From positions 8,865 through 72,864 of the forward strand of contig JBBTTD010000002.1 of assembly GCA_038064415.1 (NCBI GenBank): DNA of 64,000 nt. Reading direction: 5' to 3'. Positions 5,218-48,962 of the stretch are shown in pieces. The notes under the pieces are model-generated. The model worked only from the letters and a program-made list of their open reading frames with translations. It searched no databases and was not told the DNA's origin. The position numbers were made by a program, and so were the translations under genes. How positions within the stretch are numbered: position 1 is the stretch's first letter; each line of letters starts with the position of its first letter. The DNA comes from Patescibacteria group bacterium (GTDB lineage Bacteria; Patescibacteriota; Minisyncoccia; Phycocordibacterales; PALSA-1337).

Positions 5218-7485
5218 CTATTTCTTCCCTGCCTGTATATCCTTTATGGCAGACTCTATCTGGGTTTTTAGTTCAGGATTGTCTTTCTCCAAGGCACGAA
5301 GTGTTTCTATAGCTGCCCAAGATTGACCGCTAGCATACTGCGTCTGCGCGAGCTTCGCTCTAAGTTGTATATTTGTTTTATCCGCCGCGACTAATTTCTG
5401 ATATATAGCTATAGCTTTGGGATACTCTTTGATGGAGACATACGCTTGAGCTATGCGTTCAGTTTCAAATAATGTCGGATCATCACCAAACAATTTTTTG
5501 GCTTCTGCTTCTTTGTCGTTAAAAATAAGGCCAATTATATAAGCTGACTTAGCTTCTTCAAATGTCGGATCTGATTCGTATGCTTGTTTCAATAAAGCGA
5601 CAGCTTCATCTTTTTTACCGACATTAATATAGACTGTGGCTAATTGAAAAGCTACTGACTGCTTTGCTGGAGTCAATTCGTGGGCCTTTACGAGTAATGG
5701 TTCTGATTGAGCAAACTGTCCAACTGAATTCATGAACGAACCTCCCAGAACATACATACGCGCGTCCTTTGGAGCGATTGCGATTTGCGCTTCAATAACT
5801 TTGTTTGCCAAATCAAAAAATGCTTGCTTCGTGGGACCCGGGTATTGGCCGCTAATAACATTACCGGCGCAAGCAAGCACTTGCTCTCTAGTTTCTTGAT
5901 TGGCCATGTAAGAGTTTATGGAGAATATTTTGTCAAATAGAGTTACATCCGCGCCCAGATTCTTACTATCATTACAAGCGGTAAGAGCTTTGATCAAACC
6001 AGTATTAGCTTGAATTGGTCGCACATTCAGAAAATACAGACTTCCAACTAGAGCAACTAAAACTATTGGAGCAACTATATACTCAACCGCATCGGTGCTG
6101 AAAGTCTTATTTTCCAGCCATACTGAAATTTTTGAGGGTGATTTTTGAGATAAGATTTGACCCCCATTCTTGACAGAAGTAATAGATTTGCGATTTGAGA
6201 TTGAAGAAGAACCCACAAAACCAAGAATAGCAAAGAAGAAAACATAACTCGCGAGGTTATCAAACACGAAAATATTGTGTATCGCATATCCAGCAATCAG
6301 TCCGGTCAAAACACTTTTTTGCGCGATGCTCAATTGTGATCGTCTCCAGATTGCAATCAGAGCCAGTACATATAAAGCAAGATATGCGATCAGACCGACG
6401 AAACCTGAAGCTACCAGCCAATCTAGAAAAACGCTGTGGGCGCGGTCAAACCATTGTTCTTGAGCCCACATCTCTGGCTCATAGTTCGCGTTAAAGATAT
6501 AGTTGAAATTCTCTTGCCCCCAACCGAAAATTGGGCGTTCTAGGGCACCAGAAATGGCCATTGGCCAAATGTAGCCTCGAGCTTGAGTCTTGGTATCATT
6601 CCAAGAAATTGTGGCTAGACGATTCAATACTTCGTTGTCTTGAATAAAAGTAGAGGTACGATTCATCCAGAAAACTACACCAATCAGTATGATCACAACT
6701 ATTACACTCCCTGAAATCCAGCGAGATTTTTTTAATTCGCCTCTGCCAAAAATTGCGTATAAAGCCAAAGACAACATAATACCACCAATCAAACCAAGAG
6801 CAGTACCACGAGTCTGGGTTTCAAAGATAATAAAACCAAATAATACAGCTAGAATCGGATATACCCATTGCAAAAATCCCGAATTAATTATTTGTTTTAC
6901 TCTTGCGACAAAGGACATGTACACCGCAATACCAATATGCATCAACATATAGACAGCCATGTATGCGGCGTTGCCGAGGGAGGCGTCAATACGGGTACTA
7001 CCCTGGTGAACAGTCGCATTACCAGTCAATTGTAGTATGCCATAAATTGAGATAACAAAAGCAATGACTAAAGAAAAATTAAACCAGCGGTGCCACATTC
7101 TTTTTCCTTCTTCTCCAAAACCAAACAAATGTGTAGCAGTCATGTAAAACATCCAGAGGTGAATCACAACCAACCATCCTTCCATTCGTTCAAAGTTTGA
7201 TACGATACTACGGATTGAGTTGACTCCTAATAGGTCAGCAACTAAAGCAATCAAAGCAAATAAACTCACGCCAATCGTAAGTGCCGTAAATTTTGGTCGA
7301 TACTTTGCATCAAGAAAAGCTAAAATAATCCAACTGGCAAAGGCTAGTTCTACTAGAATACGGAAATAAAACGCTTTACCTGTGATAAATGGAAAAAAGT
7401 ATGAATTGGCAACAATTAGTGGAAAGATTGGGATTAGAAAAATGGCAACTATCGAAATTGAGCGTAAGATTTTCTGAAGATTCAT
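5218..7485 (-). CDS. O-antigen ligase/polymerase-like polytopic membrane protein with C-terminal TPR repeats
   Basis: 755 aa. About 10-12 TM helices in the N-terminal two-thirds (Wzy/WaaL-like O-antigen ligase domain architecture). The C-terminal ~250 aa is TPR-like repeats (AQAYVSIKEYPKAIAIYQKLV...). Confidence 0.6.
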   Translation of the reverse strand: MNLQKILRSISIVAIFLIPIFPLIVANSYFFPFITGKAFYFRILVELAFASWIILAFLDAKYRPKFTALTIGVSLFALIALVADLLGVNSIRSIVSNFERMEGWLVVIHLWMFYMTATHLFGFGEEGKRMWHRWFNFSLVIAFVISIYGILQLTGNATVHQGSTRIDASLGNAAYMAVYMLMHIGIAVYMSFVARVKQIINSGFLQWVYPILAVLFGFIIFETQTRGTALGLIGGIMLSLALYAIFGRGELKKSRWISGSVIVVIILIGVVFWMNRTSTFIQDNEVLNRLATISWNDTKTQARGYIWPMAISGALERPIFGWGQENFNYIFNANYEPEMWAQEQWFDRAHSVFLDWLVASGFVGLIAYLALYVLALIAIWRRSQLSIAQKSVLTGLIAGYAIHNIFVFDNLASYVFFFAILGFVGSSSISNRKSITSVKNGGQILSQKSPSKISVWLENKTFSTDAVEYIVAPIVLVALVGSLYFLNVRPIQANTGLIKALTACNDSKNLGADVTLFDKIFSINSYMANQETREQVLACAGNVISGQYPGPTKQAFFDLANKVIEAQIAIAPKDARMYVLGGSFMNSVGQFAQSEPLLVKAHELTPAKQSVAFQLATVYINVGKKDEAVALLKQAYESDPTFEEAKSAYIIGLIFNDKEAEAKKLFGDDPTLFETERIAQAYVSIKEYPKAIAIYQKLVAADKTNIQLRAKLAQTQYASGQSWAAIETLRALEKDNPELKTQIESAIKDIQAGKK

Positions 7486-7628: not shown

Positions 7629-7877
7629 ATGGTAAATGAAATCAAGCCAAATGGAATTTATACAACCAGCGAGACGCAAAGCTACTTGCGTATAAGTGAA
7701 AGCACGATCAAGAGAATGCTGAAGAAAGGTCTGATTCGTGCTAACAAGGTTGGTGGACAGTATAGAATTCTTGGAAAAGAGATCTTACGTGTCCTATCAC
7801 CTGATTTGGAAAAGGAGGCAATTAAATCATACTTGGATCTCAAGAAAAAAGTCGTAAAAAAGATAAATAGATGGTAA
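7629..7877 (+). CDS. Helix-turn-helix DNA-binding protein (excisionase/MerR-like HTH_17 type)
   Basis: 82 aa. Motif [37 protein letters not shown] is typical of excisionase-family HTH domains. It is the first gene of the glycan island. Confidence 0.6.
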
Positions 7878-8974
7878 AATCAAAAACTATGAAAAAGAAA
7901 ACGACAAGGAACGCCAAAAGAAAAAAAGCGCTTATTACAGGAATTACTGGTCAGGATGGATCATACCTTGCAGAACTTCTTATTGAAAAAGGATATGAAG
8001 TACACGGACTCATGAGACGATCGAGCTCATTTAACACTTCTCGTATTGATCATCTTTTTCAAGATCCACATACCAAAGGGAAACTATTCACTGGGAGTTT
8101 TGGCGACCTTTCCGACGCAAGCAACCTCTCGCGCCTTATTGAATCTCTAAAGCCAGACGAAATCTACAATCTTGGCGCACAGAGTCATGTGAGAGTAAGT
8201 TTTGATATCCCTGAATATACAGCTGATGTAGTTGGATTGGGAACACTTCGTCTCTTGGATGCAATTAGAGAAAGTGGGGTTAAGACAAAATTTTACCAAG
8301 CCTCGTCCTCTGAAATGTTTGGAAAAGTAACGGAAATTCCTCAAACTGAAAATACCCCTTTCCATCCTCGTTCACCATATGCAGTAGCAAAAGTATTCTC
8401 ATATTGGATCACCAGAAATTATCGTGAGTCATATAATCTTTTCGCGGTAAATGGGATTCTTTTTAATCACGAATCTCCTCGCCGAGGAAAGACATTCGTC
8501 ACTAAGAAAATTACCCGGGGATTAGCACGTATTAAGCTAGGACTTGATGAAAAATTATACCTTGGAAACCTTGATGCAAAACGCGATTGGGGACATGCAA
8601 AAGATTATGTATACGGCATGTGGTTAATGCTCCAACAAGACAAACCAGATGACTACATACTTGCGACTGGTGAAAATCATTCTGTACGTGAATTCGTTGA
8701 AGAAGTTGCAAAATACTTTGACATCGATCTGATGTGGAGAGGAAAAGGAGTAAAAGAAAAAGGAATTGACAAAAAAACTGGTAAAATAATCATTGAGATT
8801 GATCCTATATATTTTAGGCCAGCTGAAGTTGACCTGCTCATTGGTGATGCATCAAAAGCAAGAAAAAAGCTTGGATGGAAACCTAAAATTCGTTTTAAAG
8901 AATTAGTAAGATTGATGTGCGAACATGATCTGAAAGAAGAAAAATATGCAAAGCAAATTCTTGCAAATGAATAA
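7871..8974 (+). CDS. gmd: GDP-mannose 4,6-dehydratase
   Basis: Near-colinear match to Gmd: [77 protein letters not shown]. Confidence 0.95.
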
Positions 8975-9908
8975 CTATATGAATAAAGAATCAAAAATAT
9001 ATGTAGCTGGACATACTGGTCTCGTTGGAGGAGCAATTTTTAGATTACTTAAACAAAAAGGTTACAAAAATCTTATTGGCAAGACACACACCGAGCTCGA
9101 TCTTGAAAATGAATCACAAGTAAAAACATTTTTTGAAAAAGAAAAACCTGAGTATGTATTTTTATGCGCCGCAAAAGCAGGTGGAATAAAAGACAACAGC
9201 GAGAAACCTGCTGAATTTATTTTAAGAAACCTTAAAATACAGACCAATGTTATAGATACGGCATATAGAAACCAAGTAAAAAAACTTCTTTTTATGGGAA
9301 GCTCATGCATATATCCACGGATTACAGAACAGCCCATTAAAGAGGACTACTATATGACAGGAAAGCTTGAACCGACAAATGAAGCATATGCTGTCGCAAA
9401 GATTGCCGGCATATCAATGTGTCAATCATACAGAAAACAATATGGCTGTGATTTTATTTCTGTCATGCCAAACAACATTTATGGACCAGGTGATCATTTT
9501 GAAATAGAGCGTTCACATGTAATACCTGCTTTGATTCGTAGATTCCATGATGCAAAAAAAGAAAACAAGAAAGAGATCGTGCTTTGGGGTACGGGAGTCG
9601 CAATTCGAGAATTTCTCCATTGTGATGATTTGGCTAGTGCAAGCTTATTTCTAATGAAAAACTACAGAGATAAGGAAATTATTAATGTTGGTACAGGAGT
9701 CGGTATATCAATCAAAGATCTCGGAACAATGATACGGAAGATTGCTGGTTTTGAAGGCAAAATCGTATGGGATTCAACAAAACCTGATGGAATGCCGATA
9801 CGACTCCTTGATGCCTCAAAGATTCAATCGCTTGGTTGGAAAGCGAAAATTGATTTTGATAAAGGCCTAAAGGAAACATATGAATGGTTTATTGAACATG
9901 TTGTATAA
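8946..9908 (+). CDS. fcl: GDP-4-keto-6-deoxymannose 3,5-epimerase/4-reductase (Fcl / ColC-type)
   Basis: [61 protein letters not shown] are Fcl hallmarks. ColC (GDP-colitose synthase) is a close homolog and cannot be excluded. Confidence 0.9.
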
Positions 9909-9926
9909 AAAAATAAAATTAAACCA

Positions 9927-11120
9927 ATGAAAAAATCTACTGGATTTAGGGTGCCACTAGTCAAAAATGCTTTAATAAATAATAAGCAAGCACTGCAGGC
10001 GTTATCCACATTCATTTTGAAGACTGACAGATTAAGCATGGGCAACTATTGTCATGCTTTTGAGCTAGCATTTGCAAAAAAACAAAAACGAAAATATGCA
10101 ATACTTTTCAACAGTGGCGGTAGTGCAAATTTGGCGATGATTCAAACTCTAAAAAACTTGGGTAAGTTAAAAAATAAAGATAAGGTCGGTTTCTCTTCCT
10201 TGACTTGGTCTACGAATGTTATGCCTATAATCCAGTTGGGACTTGAAGCGATTCCAGTAGATTGCGATCCTACAACACTCAACAGTATGTCAAAAAATGC
10301 AATAAAAATATTAGAAAAGGAGAAGTGTTCAGCATTTTTTCTGACAAATGCACTAGGATTTGCTGGAGACATAGACATCATAGAAAAAGAGTGTAAAAAA
10401 AGAGGAATTATTGTGCTTGAAGATAACTGTGAAGCCTTGGGAACTGAACTTAATAAAGGAAAAACTGGAAATTTTGGTTTAGCTTCAAGTTTTTCTTTTT
10501 TCGTTGCCCATCATATGTCAACGATTGAGGGTGGTATGGTCTGTACAGACAACGATAATTTTGCAGAAATGCTCAAAATTGTGAGGGCTAACGGATGGGA
10601 TAGAAACATCAGTCCAGAAAGACAAATCTATTGGAGAAATAAATTTGGAATTGAATCTGATTTTCAAGCCAAATATACTTTCTATGATCTGGGTTACAAT
10701 CTTCGTCCAACTGAAATTACAGGATTCCTAGGCCTACATCAGTTGAAGTTTCTTGATAAAACAACAAAAATCCGTGAAAAGAATTTTAGACGAATTTACA
10801 AAGTTCTCAAAGAGAATGGTGACTTTCTCCCTCTTAACTGGAAACATATAAAGATAATCTCAGCATTTGCCATACCACTTATATGCAAAAATCCAAAGCT
10901 TAGAGAAAAATACATCAGGCGGTTTGAGAAGATGGGAGTAGAAGTTCGTCCAATGATTGCTGGAAATATGCAACGACAACCTTTTTATAAAAAATATTCT
11001 TCTAAAAATTATAACTTACCTGGTGCAGATATTATCCATTATAACGGATTTTATTGTGGTAACTGCCCAGATTACACGGAAGAAGAACTCAAAATAATAA
11101 TAGGCTGCATAAAAAAATGA
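9927..11120 (+). CDS. DegT/DnrJ/EryC1 family PLP enzyme with His replacing the Schiff-base Lys (ColD/E1-like sugar 3-dehydratase)
   Basis: Fold-type I aminotransferase family. At the position of the PLP lysine (FSFFGNKTITTGEGG in perosamine synthase) this protein has FSFFVAHHMSTIEGG, the His substitution characteristic of GDP-4-keto-6-deoxymannose 3-dehydratase ColD and CDP-hexulose 3-dehydrase E1. Confidence 0.65.
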   Translation: MKKSTGFRVPLVKNALINNKQALQALSTFILKTDRLSMGNYCHAFELAFAKKQKRKYAILFNSGGSANLAMIQTLKNLGKLKNKDKVGFSSLTWSTNVMPIIQLGLEAIPVDCDPTTLNSMSKNAIKILEKEKCSAFFLTNALGFAGDIDIIEKECKKRGIIVLEDNCEALGTELNKGKTGNFGLASSFSFFVAHHMSTIEGGMVCTDNDNFAEMLKIVRANGWDRNISPERQIYWRNKFGIESDFQAKYTFYDLGYNLRPTEITGFLGLHQLKFLDKTTKIREKNFRRIYKVLKENGDFLPLNWKHIKIISAFAIPLICKNPKLREKYIRRFEKMGVEVRPMIAGNMQRQPFYKKYSSKNYNLPGADIIHYNGFYCGNCPDYTEEELKIIIGCIKK

Positions 11121-11130
11121 AAGAAAAACT

Positions 11131-11955
11131 ATGAATACACTTACCACAATAATAAAACCTAAGAAAACATTTAGTTTGCGAGATTTTAGAGAACTTTGGA
11201 ATTACAGAGAACTTCTATATTTTTTTACATGGAGAGATCTAAAGGTTCGTTACAAACAAACGGTTATTGGAGCTGCTTGGGCAATTCTGCAACCATTTAT
11301 AACCATGGTAATTTTCACTCTATTTTTTGGTACGCTTGCCAAAATGCCATCCGACGGAATTCCATATCCTATCTTCGTTTACACAGGACTTCTTTTTTGG
11401 CAATTTTTTTCAAGTTCCCTTTCCGATACTAGTAATGTGCTTATCGCCAATCAATCAATCATAACTAAAGTCTACTTTCCTCGTTTAATTTTGCCGATAT
11501 CGGGTGTTATAACAAAATTTGTAGATTTCTTGATAGCATCTATTATACTAGCTGGACTAATGATATATTTTGGATTCATTCCACACATAAGTGGACTATT
11601 GATTATACCAATACTGCTTATAATAACTTTTATGGCTTCGGTTGGTACAGGATTATTCTTGGCATCAATTAATGTCAAATATCGTGATATTCGTTATGCT
11701 CTCCCATACTTTATACAAATGCTTCTATTCTTGACACCAGTCATATATCCCGCATCAATTGCAGGTAAATACTCTTGGATTCTCGCATTAAATCCGATGA
11801 CGGGAGTGATACAGTCCGCGCGCGCAGCTCTTTTGGGAACAACACCAATAAACTGGGTACTTCTGTCCATATCATTTTCAACTTGTCTTATTATCTTAAT
11901 CATTGGAATAATGTATTTCAAAAAAGTTGAGAGATATTTCGCAGATATTCTATAG
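11131..11955 (+). CDS. wzm: ABC-2 type polysaccharide export permease (Wzm)
   Basis: 274 aa with 6 TM helices. ABC-2 family pattern and placement immediately upstream of the ATPase. Confidence 0.8.
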   Translation: MNTLTTIIKPKKTFSLRDFRELWNYRELLYFFTWRDLKVRYKQTVIGAAWAILQPFITMVIFTLFFGTLAKMPSDGIPYPIFVYTGLLFWQFFSSSLSDTSNVLIANQSIITKVYFPRLILPISGVITKFVDFLIASIILAGLMIYFGFIPHISGLLIIPILLIITFMASVGTGLFLASINVKYRDIRYALPYFIQMLLFLTPVIYPASIAGKYSWILALNPMTGVIQSARAALLGTTPINWVLLSISFSTCLIILIIGIMYFKKVERYFADIL

Positions 11956-13231
11956 AAACATGAACATTGAACCAATAATAAAAGCAAGAAATATAGGAAA
12001 AAAATACAAAATTAGGCATAATCTTGGTGGTTATGTCGCCCTTAGAGATGTCATTATGACGATAATTAAGAGCCCATTTAGATTTGCTAAAGATAAAATA
12101 AAATCCATAACTGGCATAAAAACAAAAGAAGAATTCTGGGCTTTGAAAGATGTCAGTTTTGACATTTTTCCTGGAGAAGTTGTTGGGATAATTGGACGAA
12201 ATGGAGCAGGAAAATCTACACTTCTTAAAATACTAACTGGCATTACTCCACCTACGACTGGCGAAATACACCTACATGGTCGAGTTGCTTCGCTACTTGA
12301 GGTCGGTACAGGATTTCATCCAGAATTGACTGGCCGAGAAAATATTTTTCTAAACGGGGCAATACTGGGAATGACCAGAAAAGAAATTGCGAAAAATTTT
12401 GATTCCATTGTAGAATTTGCTGAAATAAGCAAATTTCTTGATACACCAGTAAAATACTATTCCAGTGGTATGTATGTTCGTCTAGCATTTTCAGTTTCTG
12501 CGCATATGGAGCCAGATATTCTACTTGTAGATGAGGTACTGGCTGTTGGTGATGCTGAATTTCAGAAAAAATGTTTAGGAAAAATGGAGGAGGTAACACG
12601 TAAACAAGGTAGAACCATTCTATTTGTCAGTCATAATATGGCGGCAATTCAAAGTCTATGTAAAAAATGTATACTGATTGAAAAAGGTAGTATAAAAAAT
12701 ATTGGAAATACAGAGGATATTGTCAATCAGTACTTGAGTGGTAATGCAAAAGAAGGAACGGAGAAGATCTGGCCAGAGGAAAAACGTCCTGGAAATGATA
12801 TAGCTTCTCTTATTTCAACTAGATTAATAAACCGAGAAGGAAAAACTATTTCATATGCTTATTCTGATAAAGAAATTGGTATAGAGATAGTCCACGAGGT
12901 CAAGAAACCTGGTTACATGCCAATACCAAATGTACATGTCTTTACCAACAAGGCAGAATATGCTTTTATCAGTCATGCTGACTATAATGAGAATCTTGAT
13001 AAAGTCGGAATATACAAATCAACTGCTTGGATACCAGCCAATATTTTAAATAATAGTACATACATAATTGGCATTGCGGTTTCTACAATGATTCCTCTAC
13101 AAGTCCATCTCTATGAGCGTGAGGCAATAATCTTTCAGGTTATAGAAGATATAGATAATGCAAAAAAATATGACTACAATCAAAAGATACCTGGAGTCGT
13201 AAGACCAAAATTGGAATGGAGTTATGAATAA
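11927..13231 (+). CDS. wzt: ABC polysaccharide export ATP-binding protein (Wzt) with extended C-terminal domain
   Basis: Walker A GRNGAGKST, signature YSSGMYVRLAFS, Walker B ILLVDEVLAVGD. An extra ~180-aa C-terminal domain resembles the glycan-terminus-binding domain of O-antigen Wzt proteins. Confidence 0.85.
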   Translation: MRDISQIFYRNMNIEPIIKARNIGKKYKIRHNLGGYVALRDVIMTIIKSPFRFAKDKIKSITGIKTKEEFWALKDVSFDIFPGEVVGIIGRNGAGKSTLLKILTGITPPTTGEIHLHGRVASLLEVGTGFHPELTGRENIFLNGAILGMTRKEIAKNFDSIVEFAEISKFLDTPVKYYSSGMYVRLAFSVSAHMEPDILLVDEVLAVGDAEFQKKCLGKMEEVTRKQGRTILFVSHNMAAIQSLCKKCILIEKGSIKNIGNTEDIVNQYLSGNAKEGTEKIWPEEKRPGNDIASLISTRLINREGKTISYAYSDKEIGIEIVHEVKKPGYMPIPNVHVFTNKAEYAFISHADYNENLDKVGIYKSTAWIPANILNNSTYIIGIAVSTMIPLQVHLYEREAIIFQVIEDIDNAKKYDYNQKIPGVVRPKLEWSYE

Positions 13232-13236
13232 CAGTA

Positions 13237-13923
13237 ATGATAATAAATTATTTTGGAAAAATTAAAACTTTGGGCAAACTACTAAAAAGAAAATTTTCAG
13301 TTACACCCGAGGATGAGAAAATAGATTATGATGGCGAAACAATATACGCTGGTCACTTTCAGATCAAATATAGAGGAGTAAATATGATTCGTTGCCCTTT
13401 TGATTATGTGATATATCAAATGATGATCAATGAAGTCAAACCAGACTTAGTAATTGAAATCGGTACAAATCATGGCGGAACCACACTCTATATAGCTGAC
13501 CTCATGGACAAAATTGATCATGGAATGGTGCACTCAATTGATATAGTGAAGAAATCAGATAGACTGGTTCAAAGTAGCCCAAGGATTAAACTTTTTAGTA
13601 ATGGTTGGGATAAATATGATTTAAATGAGACAAAAGGTTTTAATAAGATTATAGTCATAGAAGATGCTTCACATATGTATGAAGACTGTATTGGTTCACT
13701 TAATAAATTTTCTAAACTTGTCAGCATTGGATCATACTATATTGTAGAAGATGGAATTATCAGTAGCCATGGAAGAGATGAAGGGTATAATGGAGGTCCG
13801 CTTAGAGCAATCAGAGAATTTCTGAAATCAAATAGCAACTTTAATGTAGATAGAAAATATTGTGATATGTTTGGCAAAAATGCAACATTCAATGTAAATG
13901 GGTACTTAAAAAGGATAAAATAA
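13237..13923 (+). CDS. CmcI/cephalosporin-hydroxylase-family SAM-dependent O-methyltransferase (glycan chain-terminal methyltransferase candidate)
   Basis: 228 aa. Motifs PFDYVIYQMMINEVKPDLVIEIGTNHGGTTLYIA and IVIEDASH are typical of the CmcI-like methyltransferases found next to Wzm/Wzt. Confidence 0.6.
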   Translation: MIINYFGKIKTLGKLLKRKFSVTPEDEKIDYDGETIYAGHFQIKYRGVNMIRCPFDYVIYQMMINEVKPDLVIEIGTNHGGTTLYIADLMDKIDHGMVHSIDIVKKSDRLVQSSPRIKLFSNGWDKYDLNETKGFNKIIVIEDASHMYEDCIGSLNKFSKLVSIGSYYIVEDGIISSHGRDEGYNGGPLRAIREFLKSNSNFNVDRKYCDMFGKNATFNVNGYLKRIK

Positions 13924-13926
13924 TTT

Positions 13927-14829
13927 ATGGCGAAAATATTTATAGGAATGCCAGTCTATAATGGCGAGCGCTTTATAAAAAGTGCTGTTGACTCAATAGT
14001 AAATCAAACTTTTAATGACTGGAAACTATTTATCTCTGATGATGGTTCTAGTGATAACACTAGTATTATTTGTAAAGAATATTCTAATTCTGATCCAAGA
14101 ATTGAATACTACAGACAACCAAAAAATACAGGACTGTTTGAAAACTTTAAATATGTGCTTGATAAGGCGGATTCGAAATATTTTATATGGTGCGCGCAGG
14201 ATGATATTAGAGAAAAAGAATATTTTGAAATATGTATACATAAATTAGAAGAGAACAAAGACTTGAGTTTTGCTACCACCACAATGGCCGCAATTGATTC
14301 GTTTGATAGAATATTGATTGTTGAGGACCAGCTTACAAAGTTATCTGGCAAACCAAGTATGATAAATGTCGCTAAATATGTTTTACAGCCAGAAATATTA
14401 GGAAAATGTAATCTGATGTATGGACTTTTCAGAACTGAAGTTGTAAAAATGGTCTGGAAAGCATATCCACAAAGAAGTGTTTGGGGTCAGGATTATATGT
14501 TTTCATTAGCTTTAATAAGTCGCTTTGAAATATTTGTCGACAGAAAAATTCTTTTCAAAAAACGTTTAGGAGGATTTTCTAGTCCTAAGGCACTTTTAAA
14601 TGACACCGACAATATGGTAAAAAAAATTGAATACAAAAATCCAAAAAATCAAATGTTCCCATTAGGTGAATTCAAGGATTATTTTAAAGGACATATGGAA
14701 GCATTAAAAGGAACACCTTATCGTAGCTTAACTGCTATACTTCTTTTGATTCGTCTGCCAAGATCATTTGTTATATATTTAAAAGAGAGAAATATAAAGA
14801 AATATTTAAATCATATCATTAACAAATAA
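13927..14829 (+). CDS. Glycosyltransferase family 2
   Basis: IGMPVYNGERFIKSAVDSIVNQTF...ISDDGSSDNT is a GT-A DXD-type N-terminus. Confidence 0.8.
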   Translation: MAKIFIGMPVYNGERFIKSAVDSIVNQTFNDWKLFISDDGSSDNTSIICKEYSNSDPRIEYYRQPKNTGLFENFKYVLDKADSKYFIWCAQDDIREKEYFEICIHKLEENKDLSFATTTMAAIDSFDRILIVEDQLTKLSGKPSMINVAKYVLQPEILGKCNLMYGLFRTEVVKMVWKAYPQRSVWGQDYMFSLALISRFEIFVDRKILFKKRLGGFSSPKALLNDTDNMVKKIEYKNPKNQMFPLGEFKDYFKGHMEALKGTPYRSLTAILLLIRLPRSFVIYLKERNIKKYLNHIINK

Positions 14830-14830
14830 G

Positions 14831-15724
14831 ATGACGGTAATCATCAAAACAATCGGTGGCTTAGGAAACCAATTATTTCAATACGCATTTGCGCGTGGTA
14901 TATCTTCACATCTTGAGACAAGCTTCCTTTTAGATATTGACACATCGGTTGTTTATAAAAATGAAAGAGTTCATGAATTTTCACTTCAACATTTTAATGT
15001 GACCATACCTATGGCTAAATGGTATCATATGTACGGCTTTGTGTGGCTACGAAGACAGAAACGGCTCTTTAATTTTATTTATCACAAGTTACGTCTAAAA
15101 AAAATGTTTTCTTCTTTTTACTTTATTGAGAGATTATTTTGCTTTGATGAAAATGTACTTTCAAAGGGTGATGGTTCATATTTTGAAGGATTCTGGAACA
15201 CAGAAAAATATTTCAAAAATATAGAAAAAGAGATTAGAAAGGAAATCATCATCAATAAACCACTCTCTGAATACGGGCAAAAAATAAATGATGAGATTAT
15301 GAAGAAAAATTCTATATCACTACATGTAAGACGCACAGATTATGTCACTCACAAGATTTCAAATGAGTATCATGGGACATGTTCTCAAGAATATTATAAA
15401 AATGCTATTAAATATGTAGCAGAAAGAGTACCTTCACCACATTTTTTCATCTTCTCTGATGATTATGGTTGGGTAGTTGAAAATTTCAAATTCCTTCAAT
15501 ATCCTTACACTTGCATAAAAAATGGACCAGAAAAAAATTATGAGGATTTAACACTTATGTCCAAATGTAAACACCATATAATAGCAAATAGTACATTCAG
15601 TTGGTGGGGTGCATGGCTCAATCCCAAAAAAGACAAGATTGTTATTGGGCCAAAACAGTGGTTCAAAAATGCTCCGAAAGCAAATACGGTAGATCTTTTC
15701 CCAGATGGTTGGATAAAATTATAA
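14831..15724 (+). CDS. Glycosyltransferase family 11 (alpha-1,2-fucosyl/colitosyl-transferase type)
   Basis: GT11 motifs GGLGNQLFQYAFA, HVRRTDY, FIFSDD, ANSTFSWWGAWLN. Confidence 0.85.
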   Translation: MTVIIKTIGGLGNQLFQYAFARGISSHLETSFLLDIDTSVVYKNERVHEFSLQHFNVTIPMAKWYHMYGFVWLRRQKRLFNFIYHKLRLKKMFSSFYFIERLFCFDENVLSKGDGSYFEGFWNTEKYFKNIEKEIRKEIIINKPLSEYGQKINDEIMKKNSISLHVRRTDYVTHKISNEYHGTCSQEYYKNAIKYVAERVPSPHFFIFSDDYGWVVENFKFLQYPYTCIKNGPEKNYEDLTLMSKCKHHIIANSTFSWWGAWLNPKKDKIVIGPKQWFKNAPKANTVDLFPDGWIKL

Positions 15725-19536: not shown

Positions 19537-21348
19537 ATGCACAAGCATGAGATTTTTTCTGAGCGGAATGATCCGGTATTGCTGAAGAAAATAACTCGAA
19601 AAATAAGGGGCCTTTTTTCTGGACCATGTGAGCGTATTCTCCTCATAAACATACCACAGGTAGCCGAAGCAGATTTCGATCTTCCCACAGCCAAACTTGC
19701 TCGGTACCCTTGTTTCCCTCCTTGTGGTGCGGGCTTGCTATCACGCGATTTACGAGATGTGGGATATCAGACTAAACTTCTTGATCTGAACTTCGAGATA
19801 CTCTCTCGAGTAAAAGAGTCGGATTTCCATTATAATCTGTGGCAAAATTCAGTAGATCAAGTGATCAAAATTTTTGTCCCGAATCTGATTGGAATAAGTT
19901 GTATGTTTTCCATGACGCACGCTTCAATGCGGGCAGTTGTAGATTATATAAAAAGACACCATCCTCATATACCAATCATAGCTGGAGGTGTACATGTATC
20001 CGGTAATGCAGCGATGGTCTTGAATGAGATTAAAGGAGTAGATCTTGCTCTCCGTTATGAAGCAGATATTGCCTTAGTCACAGTAGTTGATTTTATAAAT
20101 GGCAAGACAACAGAAAATCAACTGACTCAAATAGCGACATCAGTAGAAGGAGAATATCTAGAAATAACGGAAAGAAGCATTCCAGACGGTAATAAAGTAA
20201 ATTATTCTCCAGAATACGATGACCTGCCAATCGGTAATTACAGTTTAACTGGAAGTATCGGTGCTTATCATTGGCTTCGTACTGATCATCCGCCCGTAGG
20301 CACCATCCTTGCAAATAGAGGGTGTAGGGCTGCTTGCACTTTCTGTTCTGTCCATAGTTTTAATGGCGCGGGAGTCCGAAGTAGGACTGCAACTACTGTA
20401 GTAGATGAAATGGAGAGAATGGTCCAAAAATATGGCATCAAGCATTTTATGTGGCTTGATGACGACCTTTTTAGACCAGACTCTGCGGTGGAACTCTTTC
20501 CTGAAATCACTAGGAGAAGACTGGGTATAACATGGGATGCTTCAAACGGCGTGATTGCAAGAGCTTCTACTCCAGAAATGATACATGCGGCTTCGGAATC
20601 CGGATGTATCGGTCTGAGTTTTGGAATAGAATCTGGCAATCCAAAAATACTGAGGGACGTAAAAAAACCCAGTACCGTTGAACATTTCAAAGATGTAAGT
20701 CAAACTCTGAAAAACTATCCAAGAATGTTTTCCAAGGGTTTCCTAATGGTAGGATTTCCTGACGAAAACATCGGTCAAATTCGAGACACTGTAAATCTTG
20801 CTGTAGACATGGCTCTGGATTGGTATCCTATCCAAATTCTTTCCCCTTTTGGTGGGACAATAATGGCAAAGGCACTAGTCAAGAAAGGAGTAGTGGACGA
20901 ACATTCAGTCCTATCTTCAAATATGTTTGTCGGTGTTACCGGCAAGCAGAGAGTGAAGGAAAGACTTGAAACTACCTCTAGCGTCTTTAATCACGAAATT
21001 CTGGATGCTGATCAAGATCAGATGCGTGTTCCATCTAAGGAAGAAATGGCGGATATCTGGTTCCTTATGGATTACAGAGTCAACTACGAGCAGATTCCAA
21101 ACCAGATCAATCCAATCAAATTGGCTATGAAACGCCTCATGCTTCGTGATGTTCGGGACAGAGTCCCTAAACATATTCCAATGGCAAGTCTCTTCCTTGG
21201 GATCATTAACCAAAAGCTTGGTAATCATGAAGAAGCTAAAGAAAACTTCATGGAGACAGAGCAATATCTTAAGGAATCAGTCTTTTGGCAAGTGCGTTTT
21301 AAGAAGCTTGGCTTAATCAATCTTCTCAGAAAACTTAGCAATGACTAG
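19537..21348 (+). CDS. B12-binding domain radical SAM protein (class B radical SAM family)
   Basis: N-terminal cobalamin-binding-like domain, then the CxxxCxxC cluster motif CRAACTFC at ~aa 265, and a long C-terminal extension. Confidence 0.8.
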   Translation: MHKHEIFSERNDPVLLKKITRKIRGLFSGPCERILLINIPQVAEADFDLPTAKLARYPCFPPCGAGLLSRDLRDVGYQTKLLDLNFEILSRVKESDFHYNLWQNSVDQVIKIFVPNLIGISCMFSMTHASMRAVVDYIKRHHPHIPIIAGGVHVSGNAAMVLNEIKGVDLALRYEADIALVTVVDFINGKTTENQLTQIATSVEGEYLEITERSIPDGNKVNYSPEYDDLPIGNYSLTGSIGAYHWLRTDHPPVGTILANRGCRAACTFCSVHSFNGAGVRSRTATTVVDEMERMVQKYGIKHFMWLDDDLFRPDSAVELFPEITRRRLGITWDASNGVIARASTPEMIHAASESGCIGLSFGIESGNPKILRDVKKPSTVEHFKDVSQTLKNYPRMFSKGFLMVGFPDENIGQIRDTVNLAVDMALDWYPIQILSPFGGTIMAKALVKKGVVDEHSVLSSNMFVGVTGKQRVKERLETTSSVFNHEILDADQDQMRVPSKEEMADIWFLMDYRVNYEQIPNQINPIKLAMKRLMLRDVRDRVPKHIPMASLFLGIINQKLGNHEEAKENFMETEQYLKESVFWQVRFKKLGLINLLRKLSND

Positions 21349-21378: not shown

Positions 21379-21413
21379 GACCTCACCGCATTATGTGTGT
21401 GGGGTCTTTTTTT
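21379..21413 (+). terminator. Rho-independent terminator after the radical SAM gene
   Basis: Stem GACCTCAC (21379-21386) pairs with GTGGGGTC (21399-21406) with one G-U, a 12-nt loop, then TTTTTTT at 21407-21413. It lies between convergent genes. Confidence 0.45.
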
Positions 21414-22437
21414 ATTTTATCTGTTCACGTGCCCACTCAATTGTCCTCTCCAAACCTTTGTCAAAAGTAGTAAAATTGAACCTTTTCATTTCCTTTATTA
21501 TCTTGCTAAGATCGAGTCTGACAACTACTGGGTCTTTTCCAATATGTGAAATTGTTGATCTTGTTTTTGGAATTTTACATGACGCTTTTGTATATTTTGA
21601 AATCTTTTTCGCAAGCTCATATATTGAAATACTGTCTTGACCACCCACATTGTAAACCATATCTTTTCCTTTAAAAGCAGTGAAAAATATCATGGAAATA
21701 ACATCAGTAATATAGCCATAGGTCTTAACTGCCCTTCCTTCATCCAAGAGAATTATATTCTTTTCAACAAGCGCTTTTCTGATAAAATCGCTCATAACTC
21801 GCGTGTCACTGATTGGAAGCCCTGGACCATAGATATGTGATATTCTGACTATTTTTACATTAGTTCCATTCTTCATCTTATATGCCGAGCAAAGCGCTTC
21901 TCCAAGTCGCTTTGATTCACCATACACAGATCGTGGTTTGTGAAGAGGGTGATTTCCATTGTAATCTTCTTTTGTTGGAATAAATTCAGAAAGAACCTCC
22001 CCATAAATTTCCGCGGAGCTAAAATAAATAAAAGTACTTTTAGGCGACCACTTGAGAAGCTCAGATGTAGCATTTACATTTATTTTTACAAGCGAAAGGG
22101 GGTCATCAATAAATTTTGCAGGCTGACCATATCCAGCAGCATGAAAAATATAGTCAAATCCTTTAAGATTAAACTCTCCAGATAAATCTACCTTCTTAAA
22201 TTTCACCATAGGATCACCCTCAAGTATTGAAGAGAATGATCTCTTTGGACTAGAAAATCCAACAGCATAAATTAACGCGTTAAGCTTCAATTCATTATTC
22301 GCTAAGGATAGTGCAGCAACAACATATTGACCCAAAAAACCAGTCGCACCAGTCACGAGTATTTTTTTCCCTTTTATTTTTGTGAAATCAACCCTTGAAA
22401 GGATCTCCCGACAATCCTGCTCAATAATCTTATTCAT
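21412..22437 (-). CDS. NAD-dependent epimerase/dehydratase (extended SDR)
   Basis: The ORF is trimmed to the internal Met (MNKIIEQ, ATG at 22437) to avoid overlap. Rossmann motif ILVTGATGFLGQYVV and catalytic YGESK (YxxxK). Confidence 0.8.
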   Translation of the reverse strand: MNKIIEQDCREILSRVDFTKIKGKKILVTGATGFLGQYVVAALSLANNELKLNALIYAVGFSSPKRSFSSILEGDPMVKFKKVDLSGEFNLKGFDYIFHAAGYGQPAKFIDDPLSLVKINVNATSELLKWSPKSTFIYFSSAEIYGEVLSEFIPTKEDYNGNHPLHKPRSVYGESKRLGEALCSAYKMKNGTNVKIVRISHIYGPGLPISDTRVMSDFIRKALVEKNIILLDEGRAVKTYGYITDVISMIFFTAFKGKDMVYNVGGQDSISIYELAKKISKYTKASCKIPKTRSTISHIGKDPVVVRLDLSKIIKEMKRFNFTTFDKGLERTIEWAREQIK

Positions 22438-24271
22438 GACTTTCAACCTTTTTGACCTTTGGACCACCCCCAGGAAGAGGAGGATTCTCCCAACCCTCAA
22501 CAGGCTCAATAATCATGTTTTTTTTGAATTCCTCTCTTGGCAAATATGGGTACATATCTTCAATGGGAGTGTTCCATCCAAAAACTCTAGGTTCGTACGC
22601 ATACCAATCCCCACAATCAACATCACAGATAATTGGCCCGTTGAAAGAAAGTACCTCCCTGATCATTTTTCGAGAATCTTGGTTTTTGGAGATTTTCTTT
22701 GTTGCGACTCCATATGCATCAGTAATTTTTATAAAATCTGGCGGGACATAACCTTTTGGACCAGACGCTTCGTGTCTAGATTCAACATTTGTATCTTGAA
22801 AAGCTTTGATAATTCCATAGAAATGATTGTTGATGATAAAGGTTTTGATCTTGATACCATATGTAATGAGAGTTTGAATCTCCTGAATATTCATATTAAA
22901 ACCTCCATCACCGATGATACATACTACACTTCTTTTTTTATCAGCGGCAAACCACGAACCCATTGCTCCACAAAAAGAGAACCCCATCGGTGAGTTACCA
23001 TTATTTGTAATATAGTTCTGACCATTTTTTGTCTCAAACGCGTGATTGCTTGTTACAATGTTCCCCCCACAATCAGCCACAAGCACATCTCCTTTCTTCA
23101 TTTCTTCTGATAAGATACGCATAAAAGAGTACGGATTGACCTTGCCTTTGGCTTTAATAAATTCTTGACGAACGGGATCGTATTTATTCTTCCATGTCAT
23201 GACCTGTTTTGTCCAAGAGGAGACATCTGGAAGATTTATCTTTTCAAGCTTAATCATTAGTCTTTCAAGAAAGATCTTCGCGTCAGAATATATGCTGACA
23301 TCAAAAGGAACTTGCTGAAGTTTTTTTTGAAGTAGGGCGGGATCAACATCCACAACATACTTTTTCGCGCCCCTGGCAAATGTTTTCAAATTTCCACCAG
23401 TTATGCGTCCAGATATTCTACTTCCAATTGCTATAAGTAGATCACTATTTTGCAAACCAAAATTTCTTCCTCTACCACCGTATGTTCCAACTCGTCCACC
23501 ATAATATTCATAATCAGAAGGCACGACTTCTAGGGCATTCCATGTTGGAAACATTGGAATTTTTAGTATTCTACCGACTTTCTGTAAAAATGCTGTGCCT
23601 TTTGCAATGCCAACACCACCCCCAATAAGCATTACAGGTCTTTCTGATTTTATTAAATCCTTGAGCAATTGGTCTATTTGTTTATCAATAACATCAATGT
23701 CGTAATTTACACGATGTGCTTTCTCGTCAAAGCCGATCAGCTTTGTAGGATCTATCTCTGTTTTCTGCAGATTCATGGGGATATCCAGAAGAACTGGCCC
23801 AGGTCTTCCGTCTGTCGCAAGAAATAAGGCCTTTTCAAGTTCATATTTAATGTCTTCTGCTTTTCTTATCAATTTGGAATATTTTGTAATTGGGGATGTA
23901 ATAGCAACAATATCAGTCTCTTGAAATCCAACTTGTCTTATTGTAGGATCTGCACGCAAAAAATCAGAATTTATCTGCCCTGTTATAAAAAGTGCCGGTA
24001 CGGAATCGTAAAAGCAATTACCAATAGGAGTGACTAAATTCATGCCGCCTGGACCACTAGTCGCAATAGCAACACCGGAAATACCTTTAACTTTTGCATA
24101 CCCCTCTGCCGCAAAACCAGCTGCCTGTTCGTGCATCATGGCCACATATTTGGTCTTTTTCGTACGCGTAAAAGCATCAATCAGATATGCATTAGCGGCA
24201 CCTGAAACAACAAACATTCTGTCAATCCCCTTATCAGCGAGGTAATTTATGACGAAATCAGATAATTTCAT
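22430..24271 (-). CDS. Thiamine-pyrophosphate-dependent enzyme, acetolactate-synthase-like (YerE-like candidate)
   Basis: 613 aa with the three ALS-type domains: TPP_N (VVSGAANAYLIDAF), a central domain, and TPP_C (IIGDGGFNMNIQE with GDG). The ~50-aa C-terminal tail is unusual. Its location in a sugar cluster argues against a branched-chain amino acid role. Confidence 0.8.
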   Translation of the reverse strand: MKLSDFVINYLADKGIDRMFVVSGAANAYLIDAFTRTKKTKYVAMMHEQAAGFAAEGYAKVKGISGVAIATSGPGGMNLVTPIGNCFYDSVPALFITGQINSDFLRADPTIRQVGFQETDIVAITSPITKYSKLIRKAEDIKYELEKALFLATDGRPGPVLLDIPMNLQKTEIDPTKLIGFDEKAHRVNYDIDVIDKQIDQLLKDLIKSERPVMLIGGGVGIAKGTAFLQKVGRILKIPMFPTWNALEVVPSDYEYYGGRVGTYGGRGRNFGLQNSDLLIAIGSRISGRITGGNLKTFARGAKKYVVDVDPALLQKKLQQVPFDVSIYSDAKIFLERLMIKLEKINLPDVSSWTKQVMTWKNKYDPVRQEFIKAKGKVNPYSFMRILSEEMKKGDVLVADCGGNIVTSNHAFETKNGQNYITNNGNSPMGFSFCGAMGSWFAADKKRSVVCIIGDGGFNMNIQEIQTLITYGIKIKTFIINNHFYGIIKAFQDTNVESRHEASGPKGYVPPDFIKITDAYGVATKKISKNQDSRKMIREVLSFNGPIICDVDCGDWYAYEPRVFGWNTPIEDMYPYLPREEFKKNMIIEPVEGWENPPLPGGGPKVKKVESHE

Positions 24272-24360: not shown

Positions 24361-25599
24361 TTATTTTTTAATTACACTTTCTACTGCTCTATTCAATCTT
24401 CTACAGCCCTCCCGAAGTTTTTCTTCAGTATTTGCATAACATACCCGTACATAATTTTTTCCTCCTGGACCAAATCCTGAACCTGGACACACGACAACTC
24501 CTTCTGTCTCCATGGCATGTTTAGTAAATTCATCTCCATTCATGCCGGTCTTAGTAACGTCAATCATCAAATAAAAAGCTCCGCGAGGCTTTGAAAATTC
24601 AAATTCGGAAATTTTTCCTAATTCTTCGCATACGATATCTCTAAGCTTTCTGTATTCATGTAGATATCTTTCAGAAAATTCATTTCGGCACTCTATAGCT
24701 GTGACGCAAGCGTCCTGTAAAAATGGTGGCACACAAGACACTATTGTTTGAGATAGTAAGGCAATTTTTTGAATAATCTTTTCAGGGCCAACGGCGTAAC
24801 CAACTCGCCATCCTGTCATCGCGAATGGTTTAGAGAAGCCATTGGTAACTATAACTCGCTCACGACATTCATCTAGAGTACCGACACAAAAATGTTTCCC
24901 TTCATATACCATTCTAGCGTATATTTCATCACTTAATATCAATATATTATGCTTCTTGGCTAATTTATATATCTTTATAAGATCGTCTTTTGTATAAACT
25001 GCTCCCGTTGGATTGGATGGAGAGTTAATGACTATAATGCGTGTTTTGGGAGTAATACAATCTTCAATTGATGACGGATTCATGCGAAAACCGTCTTTAT
25101 GGGTAACTGGGATATGGATACCTTTTATATTCAACATATTTATCACAGCATTGTATGTAACGAAAGATGGGTCAGCTAAAATCACTTCTTCGCCCTCGTT
25201 AACAAGTATTGAAAAAATATAAAATATAAGAGGATTAGCTCCAGAAGTAACAACTATTTGAGAGAGGTCTGGTTCAAAAGAAAAATCTTCAGAAATAGAT
25301 TTCTGAATAGCGACCCTCAATGTATGCTCACCATAAGAACTACCATAATGGGTATTCCCAGCGTTAATAGAAGAAATAGCTACATCTTTAACTTTTTGTG
25401 GCATTTCAAGATGCGTATCGCCAATTTCAAAATGAATTAATTTTTTTCCATGCCTTTCTAATTCCTTTGCCTTTTCCAACACTTGAAACATTGATTGACC
25501 GACTATCTTATCAGCAAATTCTGAAAGTCTGATTCCAGAGTCCGTTATATTGATTTTATTCATAACGGATAGTATATGCCCCTTTAATATAGCGGTCAA
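24361..25599 (-). CDS. Class I/II pyridoxal-phosphate-dependent aminotransferase
   Basis: 412 aa aspartate-aminotransferase-fold enzyme (NPSNPTGAVYTKDDL, SKPFAMTGWRVGY with the PLP-Lys). Confidence 0.85.
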   Translation of the reverse strand: MTAILKGHILSVMNKINITDSGIRLSEFADKIVGQSMFQVLEKAKELERHGKKLIHFEIGDTHLEMPQKVKDVAISSINAGNTHYGSSYGEHTLRVAIQKSISEDFSFEPDLSQIVVTSGANPLIFYIFSILVNEGEEVILADPSFVTYNAVINMLNIKGIHIPVTHKDGFRMNPSSIEDCITPKTRIIVINSPSNPTGAVYTKDDLIKIYKLAKKHNILILSDEIYARMVYEGKHFCVGTLDECRERVIVTNGFSKPFAMTGWRVGYAVGPEKIIQKIALLSQTIVSCVPPFLQDACVTAIECRNEFSERYLHEYRKLRDIVCEELGKISEFEFSKPRGAFYLMIDVTKTGMNGDEFTKHAMETEGVVVCPGSGFGPGGKNYVRVCYANTEEKLREGCRRLNRAVESVIKK

Positions 25600-48468: not shown

Positions 48469-48537
48469 GTTGATATTATAGCCCAAAGTGATACGATAAC
48501 ACCAGAAATCTGTTGGCAACAACAGTGGAAAGGTACT

Positions 48538-48942: not shown

Positions 48943-48962
48943 GTGGATCGCAGGCCCAAGCA

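Follow-up and report, generated by a model that had tools for sequence, protein, structure and literature searches.

A probable ColD-type sugar-nucleotide 3-dehydratase in a GDP-mannose-derived deoxysugar operon of a groundwater Patescibacterium

The dehydratase gene and its catalytic histidine

The DNA analyzed in this study is a stretch of 64,000 nucleotides from a Patescibacteria group bacterium (GenBank assembly GCA_038064415.1, contig JBBTTD010000002.1, positions 8,865 to 72,864), hereafter the window. Its gene at positions 9927-11120 encodes a DegT-family enzyme bearing a histidine where sugar aminotransferases have their Schiff-base lysine, and in silico analyses indicated that it is probably a ColD-type, pyridoxamine 5'-phosphate (PMP)-dependent 3-dehydratase within a guanosine diphosphate (GDP)-mannose-derived deoxysugar operon. 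As an earlier interpretation made from the letters alone (the sequence-only reading) had described, gmd and then a gene of the Fcl/ColC family, which ends at position 9908, stand directly before it. The genes that follow encode, in this order, Wzm, Wzt, an O-methyltransferase, a GT2 and a GT11 glycosyltransferase, an AsnB-type amidotransferase, more glycosyltransferases and a B12-binding radical SAM enzyme. Several further Patescibacteria have their genes in this order, with identities of 55-85%.

The open reading frame (ORF) is intact, begins with ATG and yields a product of 397 amino acids, the whole of which is covered by the Pfam family DegT_DnrJ_EryC1 (PF01041, 189 bits). Bases 10491-10535 give FSFFVAHHMSTIEGG on translation; both the limits of the ORF and the position of the histidine, third residue after FSFF, had been given exactly by the sequence-only reading. 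This residue, His195, is found in the context FSFFVA-H-HMSTIEGG. In the alignments with PDB sequences (HMMER/phmmer) it occupies the same column as His188 of Escherichia coli ColD, the query 'vaHh' being printed opposite 'ysHh' of ColD. The first histidine of this ColD motif is His188, since it is precisely there that the mutant entries differ: 'ysNh' in 3b8x (H188N), 'ysKh' in 2r0t (H188K) and 'yNKh' in 3gr9 (S187N/H188K). His220 of the 3-dehydrase E1 shares the column as well.

The MAFFT alignment placed histidine in the catalytic column in the window protein, ColD, E1 and 22 members of the subfamily to which the window protein belongs, and lysine in four aminotransferase-like DegT paralogues. 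These lysine comparators were taken from related loci, as family scans of the window ORFs found no second DegT gene in the 64 kb. His195 and the adjacent His196 were invariant in 24 aligned relatives, and a motif scan found histidine at the catalytic position in all of the 120 nearest database homologues. Residues 180-215 of the window protein contain no lysine. The MAFFT and PDB alignments thus agree that a histidine replaces the Schiff-base lysine, and neither of them puts a lysine at that position. It must be noted that the identical protein recurs on 15 contigs, those listed including 0.1 µm-filtrate assemblies of Hainich groundwater, and therefore it is not an assembly artefact. Its public record reads 'MAG: DegT/DnrJ/EryC1/StrS family aminotransferase [Patescibacteria group bacterium]', where MAG denotes a metagenome-assembled genome.

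Relation to ColD, E1 and the aminotransferases

When the protein was compared by phmmer with all PDB sequences, ColD of E. coli O55 (2gms) was the top match (189.8 bits, 6.6e-55), followed by E1 (3bcx; 119.5 bits, 1.5e-33) and by GDP-perosamine synthase (3bn1; 79.8 bits, 1.7e-21), with other lysine-type aminotransferases below. Foldseek, run with an AlphaFold2 model of mean predicted local distance difference test (pLDDT) score 82.6, returned the same succession: ColD chains first, with template modelling (TM) scores of 0.83-0.86, then E1 and then the aminotransferases, close behind at 0.77-0.81. The structural comparison that the sequence-only reading had called for hence gives ColD as the top fold match, but the fold alone does not discriminate because the TM scores of the aminotransferases are only slightly lower. 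The residues R226, R341, N258 and R260 align with Arg219, Arg331, Asn248 and Arg250 of ColD, which we take to be functional positions, and are conserved in the relatives of the window dehydratase.

In E1 and SpnQ four cysteines bind a [2Fe-2S] cluster and a reductase is required, whereas ColD has no cluster: its aminomannoseen intermediate is hydrolysed and PMP is regenerated with glutamate (PMC8987622). The segment DCYCAPGCDNTC of E1, with Cys251, Cys253 and Cys261, stands opposite DRNISPERQIYW in the window dehydratase, where none of the three positions is a cysteine. Only the first cysteine of the E1 motif C-X57-C-X1-C-X7-C is matched (E1 Cys193, window Cys168), and it is also present in ColD. 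No CxC was found in the corresponding stretch of any of the 120 nearest homologues. Since three of the four ligands of the E1 cluster are missing, the enzyme is of the ColD type and not of the E1 type; the sequence-only reading had left both possibilities together as a 'ColD/E1-type 3-dehydratase', and only the E1 half of this designation has to be withdrawn. The motif around the pyridine-binding aspartate is EDNCE in the window protein and in ColD, EDCCD in E1 and EDAAE in the aminotransferases.

An E1-type CDP-6-deoxy-4-hexulose 3-dehydrase (RfbH/DdhC/AscC; CDP, cytidine diphosphate), which together with E3 would lead to abequose, paratose, tyvelose or ascarylose, is the identity suggested by JGI and KEGG-style names of homologues, many of which the JGI labels 'CDP-6-deoxy-D-xylo-4-hexulose-3-dehydrase' or 'E1', and by RfbH being the best NCBIfam model. 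E1 also performs a PMP-dependent C3 deoxygenation with a catalytic histidine that is preceded by alanine (PAHH, against VAHH here). However, the RfbH match, at 202.9 bits, falls short of the cut-off of 423, so that membership fails, and RfbH is likewise the best, sub-cut-off model for E. coli ColD, no ColD-specific NCBIfam model having been returned for either protein. In addition to lacking the cluster ligands, the window dehydratase differs from E1 in its surroundings: searches with Pfam and NCBIfam found no RfbF, RfbG or E3-like reductase gene and no gene of a CDP-glucose or dTDP-glucose pathway among the ORFs of the glycan island in which it lies, and its conserved neighbours are Gmd and Fcl. 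Paralogues that are truly of the E1 type and carry the cysteine motif fall into a clade of their own in the trees. We therefore regard an E1-type function as very improbable. Four of the related loci (L027, L038, L046 and L053) carry a subfamily member and one of these classical E1-type dehydrases in a single polysaccharide locus, the latter at about 1.9-6.9 kb of each locus.

A genuine sugar aminotransferase, for instance one making GDP-perosamine, would agree with the name used by NCBI and with a fold that is common to these enzymes. GDP-perosamine synthase (Per; 3bn1, 3dr4) acts moreover on GDP-4-keto-6-deoxymannose, but it is a lysine-type transaminase and a weaker match. Against such an activity are the lack of a Schiff-base lysine or of any other in residues 180-215, the invariant histidine of the subfamily, and the grouping of the protein with ColD and apart from the lysine-type enzymes, this being the clustering that the sequence-only reading had named as a check. 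Regarding the name, the RefSeq/PGAP annotation of E. coli O55:H7 CB9615 also gives 'DegT/DnrJ/EryC1/StrS family aminotransferase' for colD (L082:8702-9868), a biochemically proven 3-dehydratase, and 'GDP-L-fucose synthase family protein' for colC (L082:9865-10788). The label is therefore uninformative and the under-annotation of ColD-type enzymes systematic. An aminotransferase activity of the window protein is extremely improbable. The conversion of ColD into an aminotransferase reportedly needs the double change S187N/H188K, and PDB entry 3gr9 is this double mutant. A preprint names Ser187 as one such converting residue.

The protein encoded at 9927-11120 is, in summary of the above, a real and intact His-type, ColD-like 3-dehydratase, and it does not represent a novel kind of enzyme.

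A widespread subfamily beside ColD

The reference genes of E. coli O55:H7 were located by their DNA match to gmd, the best E. coli match being the copy in the O55 O-antigen locus. The window dehydratase is 32.5% identical to the ColD of this locus over 375 amino acids. Characterized ColDs (from E. coli and Yersinia pseudotuberculosis, together with the heptose C3-dehydratase of Campylobacter jejuni) are mutually 62-67% identical (PMC10440746), and hence the window dehydratase lies outside their orthologous group. Its own subfamily, whose members are 60-79% identical to it, shares the motifs AHHMSTIE and IVRANGWD. In the trees this subfamily was sister to ColD and not inside it, and stood apart from both the E1-type and the lysine-type enzymes; the trees are neighbour-joining without bootstrap, their groupings being backed by pairwise identities and hidden Markov model (HMM) scores.

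The likeness to the ColD systems (WbdK; E. coli O55 and Y. pseudotuberculosis; 2gms, 3b8x) comprises the DegT fold, the catalytic histidine, the EDNCE motif and the absent iron-sulfur cysteines and, with respect to the gene cluster, the Fcl-family gene directly upstream and the presence of gmd and GT11. The differences are the low identity, the residue before the histidine (Ser187 in ColD, alanine here), the partner, which is of the ColC type there and of the Fcl type here, and the setting, which in ColD is a Gram-negative O-antigen locus with Wzx/Wzy and in the window a Patescibacterium cluster with the ATP-binding cassette (ABC) exporter Wzm/Wzt. The window subfamily is also separate from ColD and much more widespread.

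A pattern scan with one genome per GTDB species, whose counts are lower bounds, found the subfamily in at least 584 species-representative genomes from many phyla. Among the matches listed were cultured Flavobacterium, Chryseobacterium and Mucilaginibacter, as well as MAGs of Patescibacteria, Gammaproteobacteria, Verrucomicrobia, Elusimicrobia, Lentisphaerae and Spirochaetes. Its members are frequent among environmental bacteria, and enterics and Vibrio are not the only carriers of these genes. The statement of the sequence-only reading that 3,6-dideoxyhexoses are rare outside enterobacterial and Vibrio O-antigens consequently holds for the glycan structures that have been described but not for the genes. 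Our literature search found no report of colitose chemistry in Flavobacterium, Chryseobacterium or Patescibacteria; one review mentioning both terms places colitose in Vibrio and Aeromonas only. Hundreds of genomes with members of this subfamily would hide a 3-deoxygenation step behind a misleading 'aminotransferase' name.

One locus assigned to an 'uncultured Gammaproteobacteria' (L037, CAZTIC010000002.1) shows the Patescibacteria gene order, most of its genes, the HTH, Wzm, Wzt and AsnB genes included, being 53-76% identical to those of the window. This suggests mis-binning or a recent horizontal transfer.

Gene context and the predicted substrate

The annotated features of the window are provided in Table 1.

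Table 1. Features of the window discussed in the text, with positions counted from its first nucleotide.
Feature	Position	Strand	Evidence
Wzy_C (O-antigen ligase-like) membrane protein with C-terminal tetratricopeptide repeats (TPR), divergent	5218..7485	-	PF04932 86 bits; TPR families
Small HTH_17 protein upstream of gmd	7629..7877	+	PF12728 43.8 bits
Gmd, the 4,6-dehydratase that acts on GDP-mannose, source of the presumed substrate	7871..8974	+	TIGR01472 578 bits (cut-off 415)
Fcl-type GDP-4-keto-6-deoxymannose epimerase/reductase	8979..9908 (start by gene callers; 8946 in the ORF list)	+	1bws 3.4e-101; NCBIfam Fcl 455.6 bits (cut-off 500)
Predicted ColD-type (His-type, Fe-S-free) PMP-dependent sugar-nucleotide 3-dehydratase	9927..11120	+	Pfam, PDB, Foldseek
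His195 codon, in place of the Schiff-base lysine	10509..10511	+	Equivalent to ColD His188 and E1 His220
Wzm (11131-11955) and Wzt (11927-13231), together an ABC exporter of undecaprenyl-linked glycan	11131..13231	+	Pfam ABC2_membrane, ABC_tran
CmcI/rhamnosyl-type O-methyltransferase (13237-13923) and GT2 (13927-14829)	13237..14829	+	PF04989 117 bits; PF00535
GT11 glycosyltransferase (fucosyl/colitosyl-transferase family)	14831..15724	+	PF01531 104.9 bits (cut-off 23.9)
B12-binding radical SAM enzyme, between the two operons	19537..21348	+	PF04055 and PF02310
SDR-family reductase (SDR: short-chain dehydrogenase/reductase), in a YerF-like position immediately downstream of the YerE-like gene	21412..22509	-	Pfam Epimerase 138 bits
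YerE-like thiamine-diphosphate carboligase	22430..24271	-	JanthE 8rph 313.7 bits; GDG...NN motif at residue 454
Aspartate-type (class I/II) aminotransferase, upstream of the YerE-like carboligase	24361..25599	-	PF00155 209 bits
Second, more divergent GT11	29951..30880	+	PF01531 35.7 bits (cut-off 23.9)

The Gmd of the window is 62% identical to that of E. coli and is the only 4,6-dehydratase recognized in the glycan island (Pfam/NCBIfam), which supports GDP-4-keto-6-deoxymannose as the substrate of the dehydratase. The window proteins were compared with the ORFs of 80 related genome loci from many phyla. Where a locus had room for such a neighbour, the gene directly upstream of the dehydratase was of the Fcl family in 58 of 76 cases and the one directly downstream encoded a GT11 in 31 of 74. 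When neighbours were counted within 10 kb in the 46 fuller loci, i.e., those extending 8 kb or more to both sides of the dehydratase, an Fcl-family gene was found in 42, a GT11 in 25 and a Gmd (at least 45% identity) in 24. In E. coli O55 colC is directly upstream of colD, the same order as in the window. This phylum-spanning synteny is the main evidence from which GDP-4-keto-6-deoxymannose can, with good confidence, be predicted as the substrate.

In this regard, a ColD-type dehydratase might act on another GDP-sugar. The ColD homologues of C. jejuni do so, that of serotype HS:5 working on GDP-6-deoxy-4-keto-heptose (PMC10440746); the latter is likewise GDP-linked, ColD-type and dependent on PMP and pyridoxal 5'-phosphate (PLP), and a weak heptose/glycerol-phosphate nucleotidyltransferase-like domain is encoded at 42246-43364 of the window. 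But the C. jejuni enzyme belongs, at 62-67% identity to E. coli ColD, to the classical group, and it takes a heptose substrate and operates with a separate epimerase and reductase. In the window the neighbouring 4,6-dehydratase exceeds the cut-off of the Gmd equivalog by a wide margin, GDP-heptose genes were not seen, and the nucleotidyltransferase-like match is far below its cut-offs and 31 kb away. The chance of a heptose or other GDP-sugar as substrate is accordingly very slight, and GDP-4-keto-6-deoxymannose is retained as the predicted one.

The partner reductase and the identity of the sugar

The gene directly upstream of the dehydratase is the operon's only candidate for the ColC step. 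Its product is 48% identical to E. coli Fcl (1bws in the PDB) and 37% identical to E. coli ColC. It keeps the motifs GSSCIYP, YAVAK and SHVIPAL, presumably the catalytic Ser107/Cys109, Tyr136/Lys140 and His179 known from work on E. coli GDP-fucose synthase. In the neighbour-joining tree it and all other copies from Patescibacteria came next to the Fcl of E. coli and to Gmd-adjacent true-Fcl paralogues of two other loci (L014 and L052), and apart from E. coli ColC and from a large clade of dehydratase-adjacent genes of organisms outside the Candidate Phyla Radiation (Patescibacteria), hereafter non-CPR. The NCBIfam Fcl scores ranged in the same manner: 551 bits for E. coli Fcl, 490-499 for the true-Fcl paralogues (L014, L052), 456-484 for the Patescibacteria copies (456 in the window, just under the cut-off of 500), 418-434 for the non-CPR dehydratase-adjacent clade and 304-313 for the ColC clade. 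Identities, tree and scores place the gene nearer to Fcl than to ColC, and a ColC identity was rejected for it. The sequence-only reading had leaned towards a ColC-type partner, which is contradicted by this grouping with true Fcl; its preference for the colitose route rather than GDP-fucose synthesis is not established either since the reductase is Fcl-type, and both sugars may be made.

Two Fcl-family genes were present in some non-CPR loci (L014 at 6500-7438 and 9018-10001, L052 at 2218-3195 and 9078-10013, and L017), with a true Fcl at or near gmd and a distinct paralogue immediately 5' of the dehydratase. The latter is likely a ColC analogue that forms its own clade and is unlike the enterobacterial ColC. 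The Patescibacteria loci have the Fcl-type copy only.

Both GT11 genes of the island score above the Pfam cut-off. The one closer to the dehydratase encodes a protein 34% identical to the colitosyltransferase WbgN of E. coli O55 and probably transfers the GDP-L-deoxyhexose of the pathway. WbgN and human FUT2, nevertheless, each transfer both L-fucose and L-colitose from GDP donors (PMC11987014), and the GT11 genes therefore do not discriminate between colitose and fucose. Accordingly, the two GT11 genes that had been said to fit colitose are indeed there, but we rejected their presence as evidence for this sugar over fucose.

Proposed pathway and its weighing

The core of the sequence-only reading, namely a DegT-family 3-dehydratase with histidine for lysine in a GDP-deoxysugar operon and, implied by it, a 3,6-dideoxyhexose, is supported by the alignments and the clustering. 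In the pathway that we propose, Gmd would convert GDP-mannose to GDP-4-keto-6-deoxy-D-mannose. PMP in the dehydratase would form a Schiff base with the C4 keto group, His195 would take the C4' proton and the C3 hydroxyl would be expelled; subsequent hydrolysis would yield GDP-4-keto-3,6-dideoxy-D-mannose, ammonia and PLP. PMP would be restored from PLP with glutamate, an iron-sulfur cluster and a reductase partner being unnecessary. The Fcl-type enzyme would then most likely carry out C5 epimerization and C4 reduction to GDP-L-colitose: as colitose is 3-deoxy-L-fucose, GDP-colitose would result if Fcl took the 3-deoxy intermediate. Finally, a GT11 enzyme would add the sugar to a polymer exported by Wzm/Wzt. 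It is very probable that this tiny groundwater organism produces a 3,6-dideoxy sugar, colitose for example, that is destined for its surface glycan. We consider colitose itself as the end product about as probable as some other outcome, and GDP-fucose may be made in parallel.

Several observations weigh against this proposal. The identity of 32.5% to E. coli ColD leaves orthology with the characterized ColDs unsupported, and our literature search found neither a characterized member of the window subfamily nor a paper on it. The partner is Fcl-type, and non-CPR genomes keep a separate ColC-like paralogue despite having a true Fcl (L014, L052), from which it follows that an ordinary Fcl may serve the 3-deoxy substrate poorly. 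The position of ColD Ser187 is occupied by alanine (Ala194), as in E1; according to a preprint this site is not conserved among dehydratases, so that Ser187 is a weak criterion of membership. The AlphaFold2 model has pLDDT values below 50 in the loop of the catalytic histidine (residues 193-200). Values below 50 were also seen at residues 252-258, a loop supplied in ColD by the partner subunit, and in both segments they probably reflect the modelling of a monomer without cofactor. Family scans did not find manB or manC in the 64-kb window.

To our knowledge, Patescibacteria are ultra-small and largely uncultured episymbionts whose surface glycans are uncharacterized, and the pathway offers a concrete prediction on their surface chemistry. 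The genetic capacity for GDP-derived 3,6-dideoxyhexoses extends far past the O-antigens of enterics and Vibrio, to Bacteroidota, Patescibacteria and other phyla, and glycan databases may understate how common colitose-type epitopes are as environmental antigens and as targets of phages or lectins.

A YerE-like enzyme and a possible branched sugar

The thiamine-diphosphate (ThDP) enzyme of the island scored 313.7 bits with JanthE and 279.5 bits with the best acetolactate synthase of the PDB, and remained below every acetolactate synthase equivalog cut-off of NCBIfam. Its likeness to YerE is read through JanthE, which is YerE-like (PMC12188165). On the way to yersiniose, YerE attaches an acetyl branch to the E1 product, CDP-4-keto-3,6-dideoxyglucose, and the reductase YerF acts next (PMC9306805). 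By analogy, a second route that does not exclude the first is conceivable, in which the YerE-like enzyme, as a possible second consumer of the dehydratase product, would branch all or part of the GDP-4-keto-3,6-dideoxyhexose at C4 with an acyl group from a 2-oxoacid and the adjacent SDR would reduce it to a GDP-linked branched 3,6-dideoxyhexose, a yersiniose analogue, instead of colitose. The acceptor would be of the type that YerE uses, and since the window has no other His-type dehydratase, this one may supply such a sugar with some of its product. No NCBIfam equivalog was returned for the SDR.

We surveyed 80 metagenome loci (L089-L168) with relatives 54-80% identical to the ThDP enzyme of the window. 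A DegT-family neighbour was present in 46 of them, including all 15 that reach 4 kb or more in both directions, and every one of these 46 neighbours, readable at the catalytic column, carries histidine. The E1 cysteine motif was sought in 15 of them and was absent, except for one E1-type gene in L133. Homologues of the SDR share the locus in 15 of the 80 cases and are often adjacent. Locus L133 (4143-19038) holds two modules side by side: one of the GDP type, with genes in a row for Gmd, a ColC-like enzyme, ColD (60% identical to that of E. coli), two SDRs and a ThDP enzyme of the window type, and one of the CDP type, with a nucleotidyltransferase, a 4,6-dehydratase, an E1-type enzyme and a second ThDP enzyme. 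In the nearest relative of the window's organism (L001, L091) the same pair of ThDP enzyme and SDR is kept on a contig with its dehydratase cluster.

These pairings speak for the branched product, but several facts count against it. The ThDP gene is 11 kb away from the dehydratase and on the opposite strand. Most of its dehydratase partners elsewhere, about 30-39% identical to the window enzyme, make up another Fe-S-free subfamily, the third after ColD and that of the window. Conversely, a ThDP gene lies within 8 kb in only 4 of the 80 loci of the window subfamily, one of which also has an E1-type paralogue, and a second dehydratase could lie beyond the window. On balance we think it rather unlikely that the dehydratase product goes, wholly or in part, to the branched sugar. 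With the same reserve, the island might be the GDP-mannose-derived counterpart of the CDP-linked yersiniose pathway, the B12-radical SAM enzyme and the aminotransferase upstream of the YerE-like gene possibly serving as tailoring enzymes. As with the YerE/YerF system and JanthE (8rph), its ThDP carboligase is followed by a reductase and accompanied by a 3-dehydratase for a 4-keto-3,6-dideoxy sugar nucleotide; it differs in that YerE/YerF is CDP-linked and relies on E1/E3, whereas the window dehydratase is Fe-S-free, stands in a GDP context and is separated by 11 kb from the carboligase gene. Were this correct, a branched GDP pathway, chemically undescribed, would be widespread according to metagenome synteny (marine, freshwater, L133). 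The colitose-type pathway through the Fcl-type enzyme is kept here as the preferred proposal.

The aminotransferase just mentioned gave sub-threshold NCBIfam matches only and is a candidate for the supply of a donor 2-oxoacid or for amination of the branch. The B12-radical SAM enzyme, which matched P- and C-methyltransferase models at sub-threshold level only, is probably a methyltransferase. Weak homologues of it (21-26%) adjoin His-type DegT genes in marine loci, e.g., L103, L119, L123, L125, L129 and L131.

Surroundings of the glycan island

The glycan island extends from about 5.2 to 44.6 kb and has a lower guanine plus cytosine (G+C) content than its flanks, which is usual for variable polysaccharide loci. 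The G+C fraction was 0.32-0.37 over most of the island (10001-40000) and 0.38-0.44 in the flanks, where housekeeping genes are found (SecA, MurB, Mur ligases and pyruvate kinase). Upstream of gmd, the small HTH_17 protein is a possible regulator; it has homologues (51-81% identical) in 11 of the 80 related loci and is kept with the operon in related Patescibacteria. The divergent Wzy_C/TPR gene is also kept beside the operon in Patescibacteria loci, and its product is a candidate glycan ligase or oligosaccharyltransferase.

The order of the O-methyltransferase and GT2 genes is maintained in related loci. Wzt showed a weak match to the carbohydrate-binding domain Wzt_C (21 bits, below the cut-off), and the CmcI-type O-methyltransferase gene comes next. 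The pairing of Wzt with an O-methyltransferase is typical of methyl-capped chain ends that are read by the exporter. Judging from family names only, as in everything that we propose about the polymer, the product looks like an ABC-transporter-dependent, methyl-capped glycan that would be joined to its acceptor by the ligase-like protein.

Three further ORFs had no Pfam match: 28968-29954 (+), which is inside the island directly upstream of the second GT11, 48256-48972 (-) and 51404-52096 (-), coding for 328, 238 and 230 amino acids, respectively. Right at the end of the island, the ORF at 44937-46949 (-) encodes a homologue of TrwB/TraG-like type IV coupling proteins, with a weak Pfam match.

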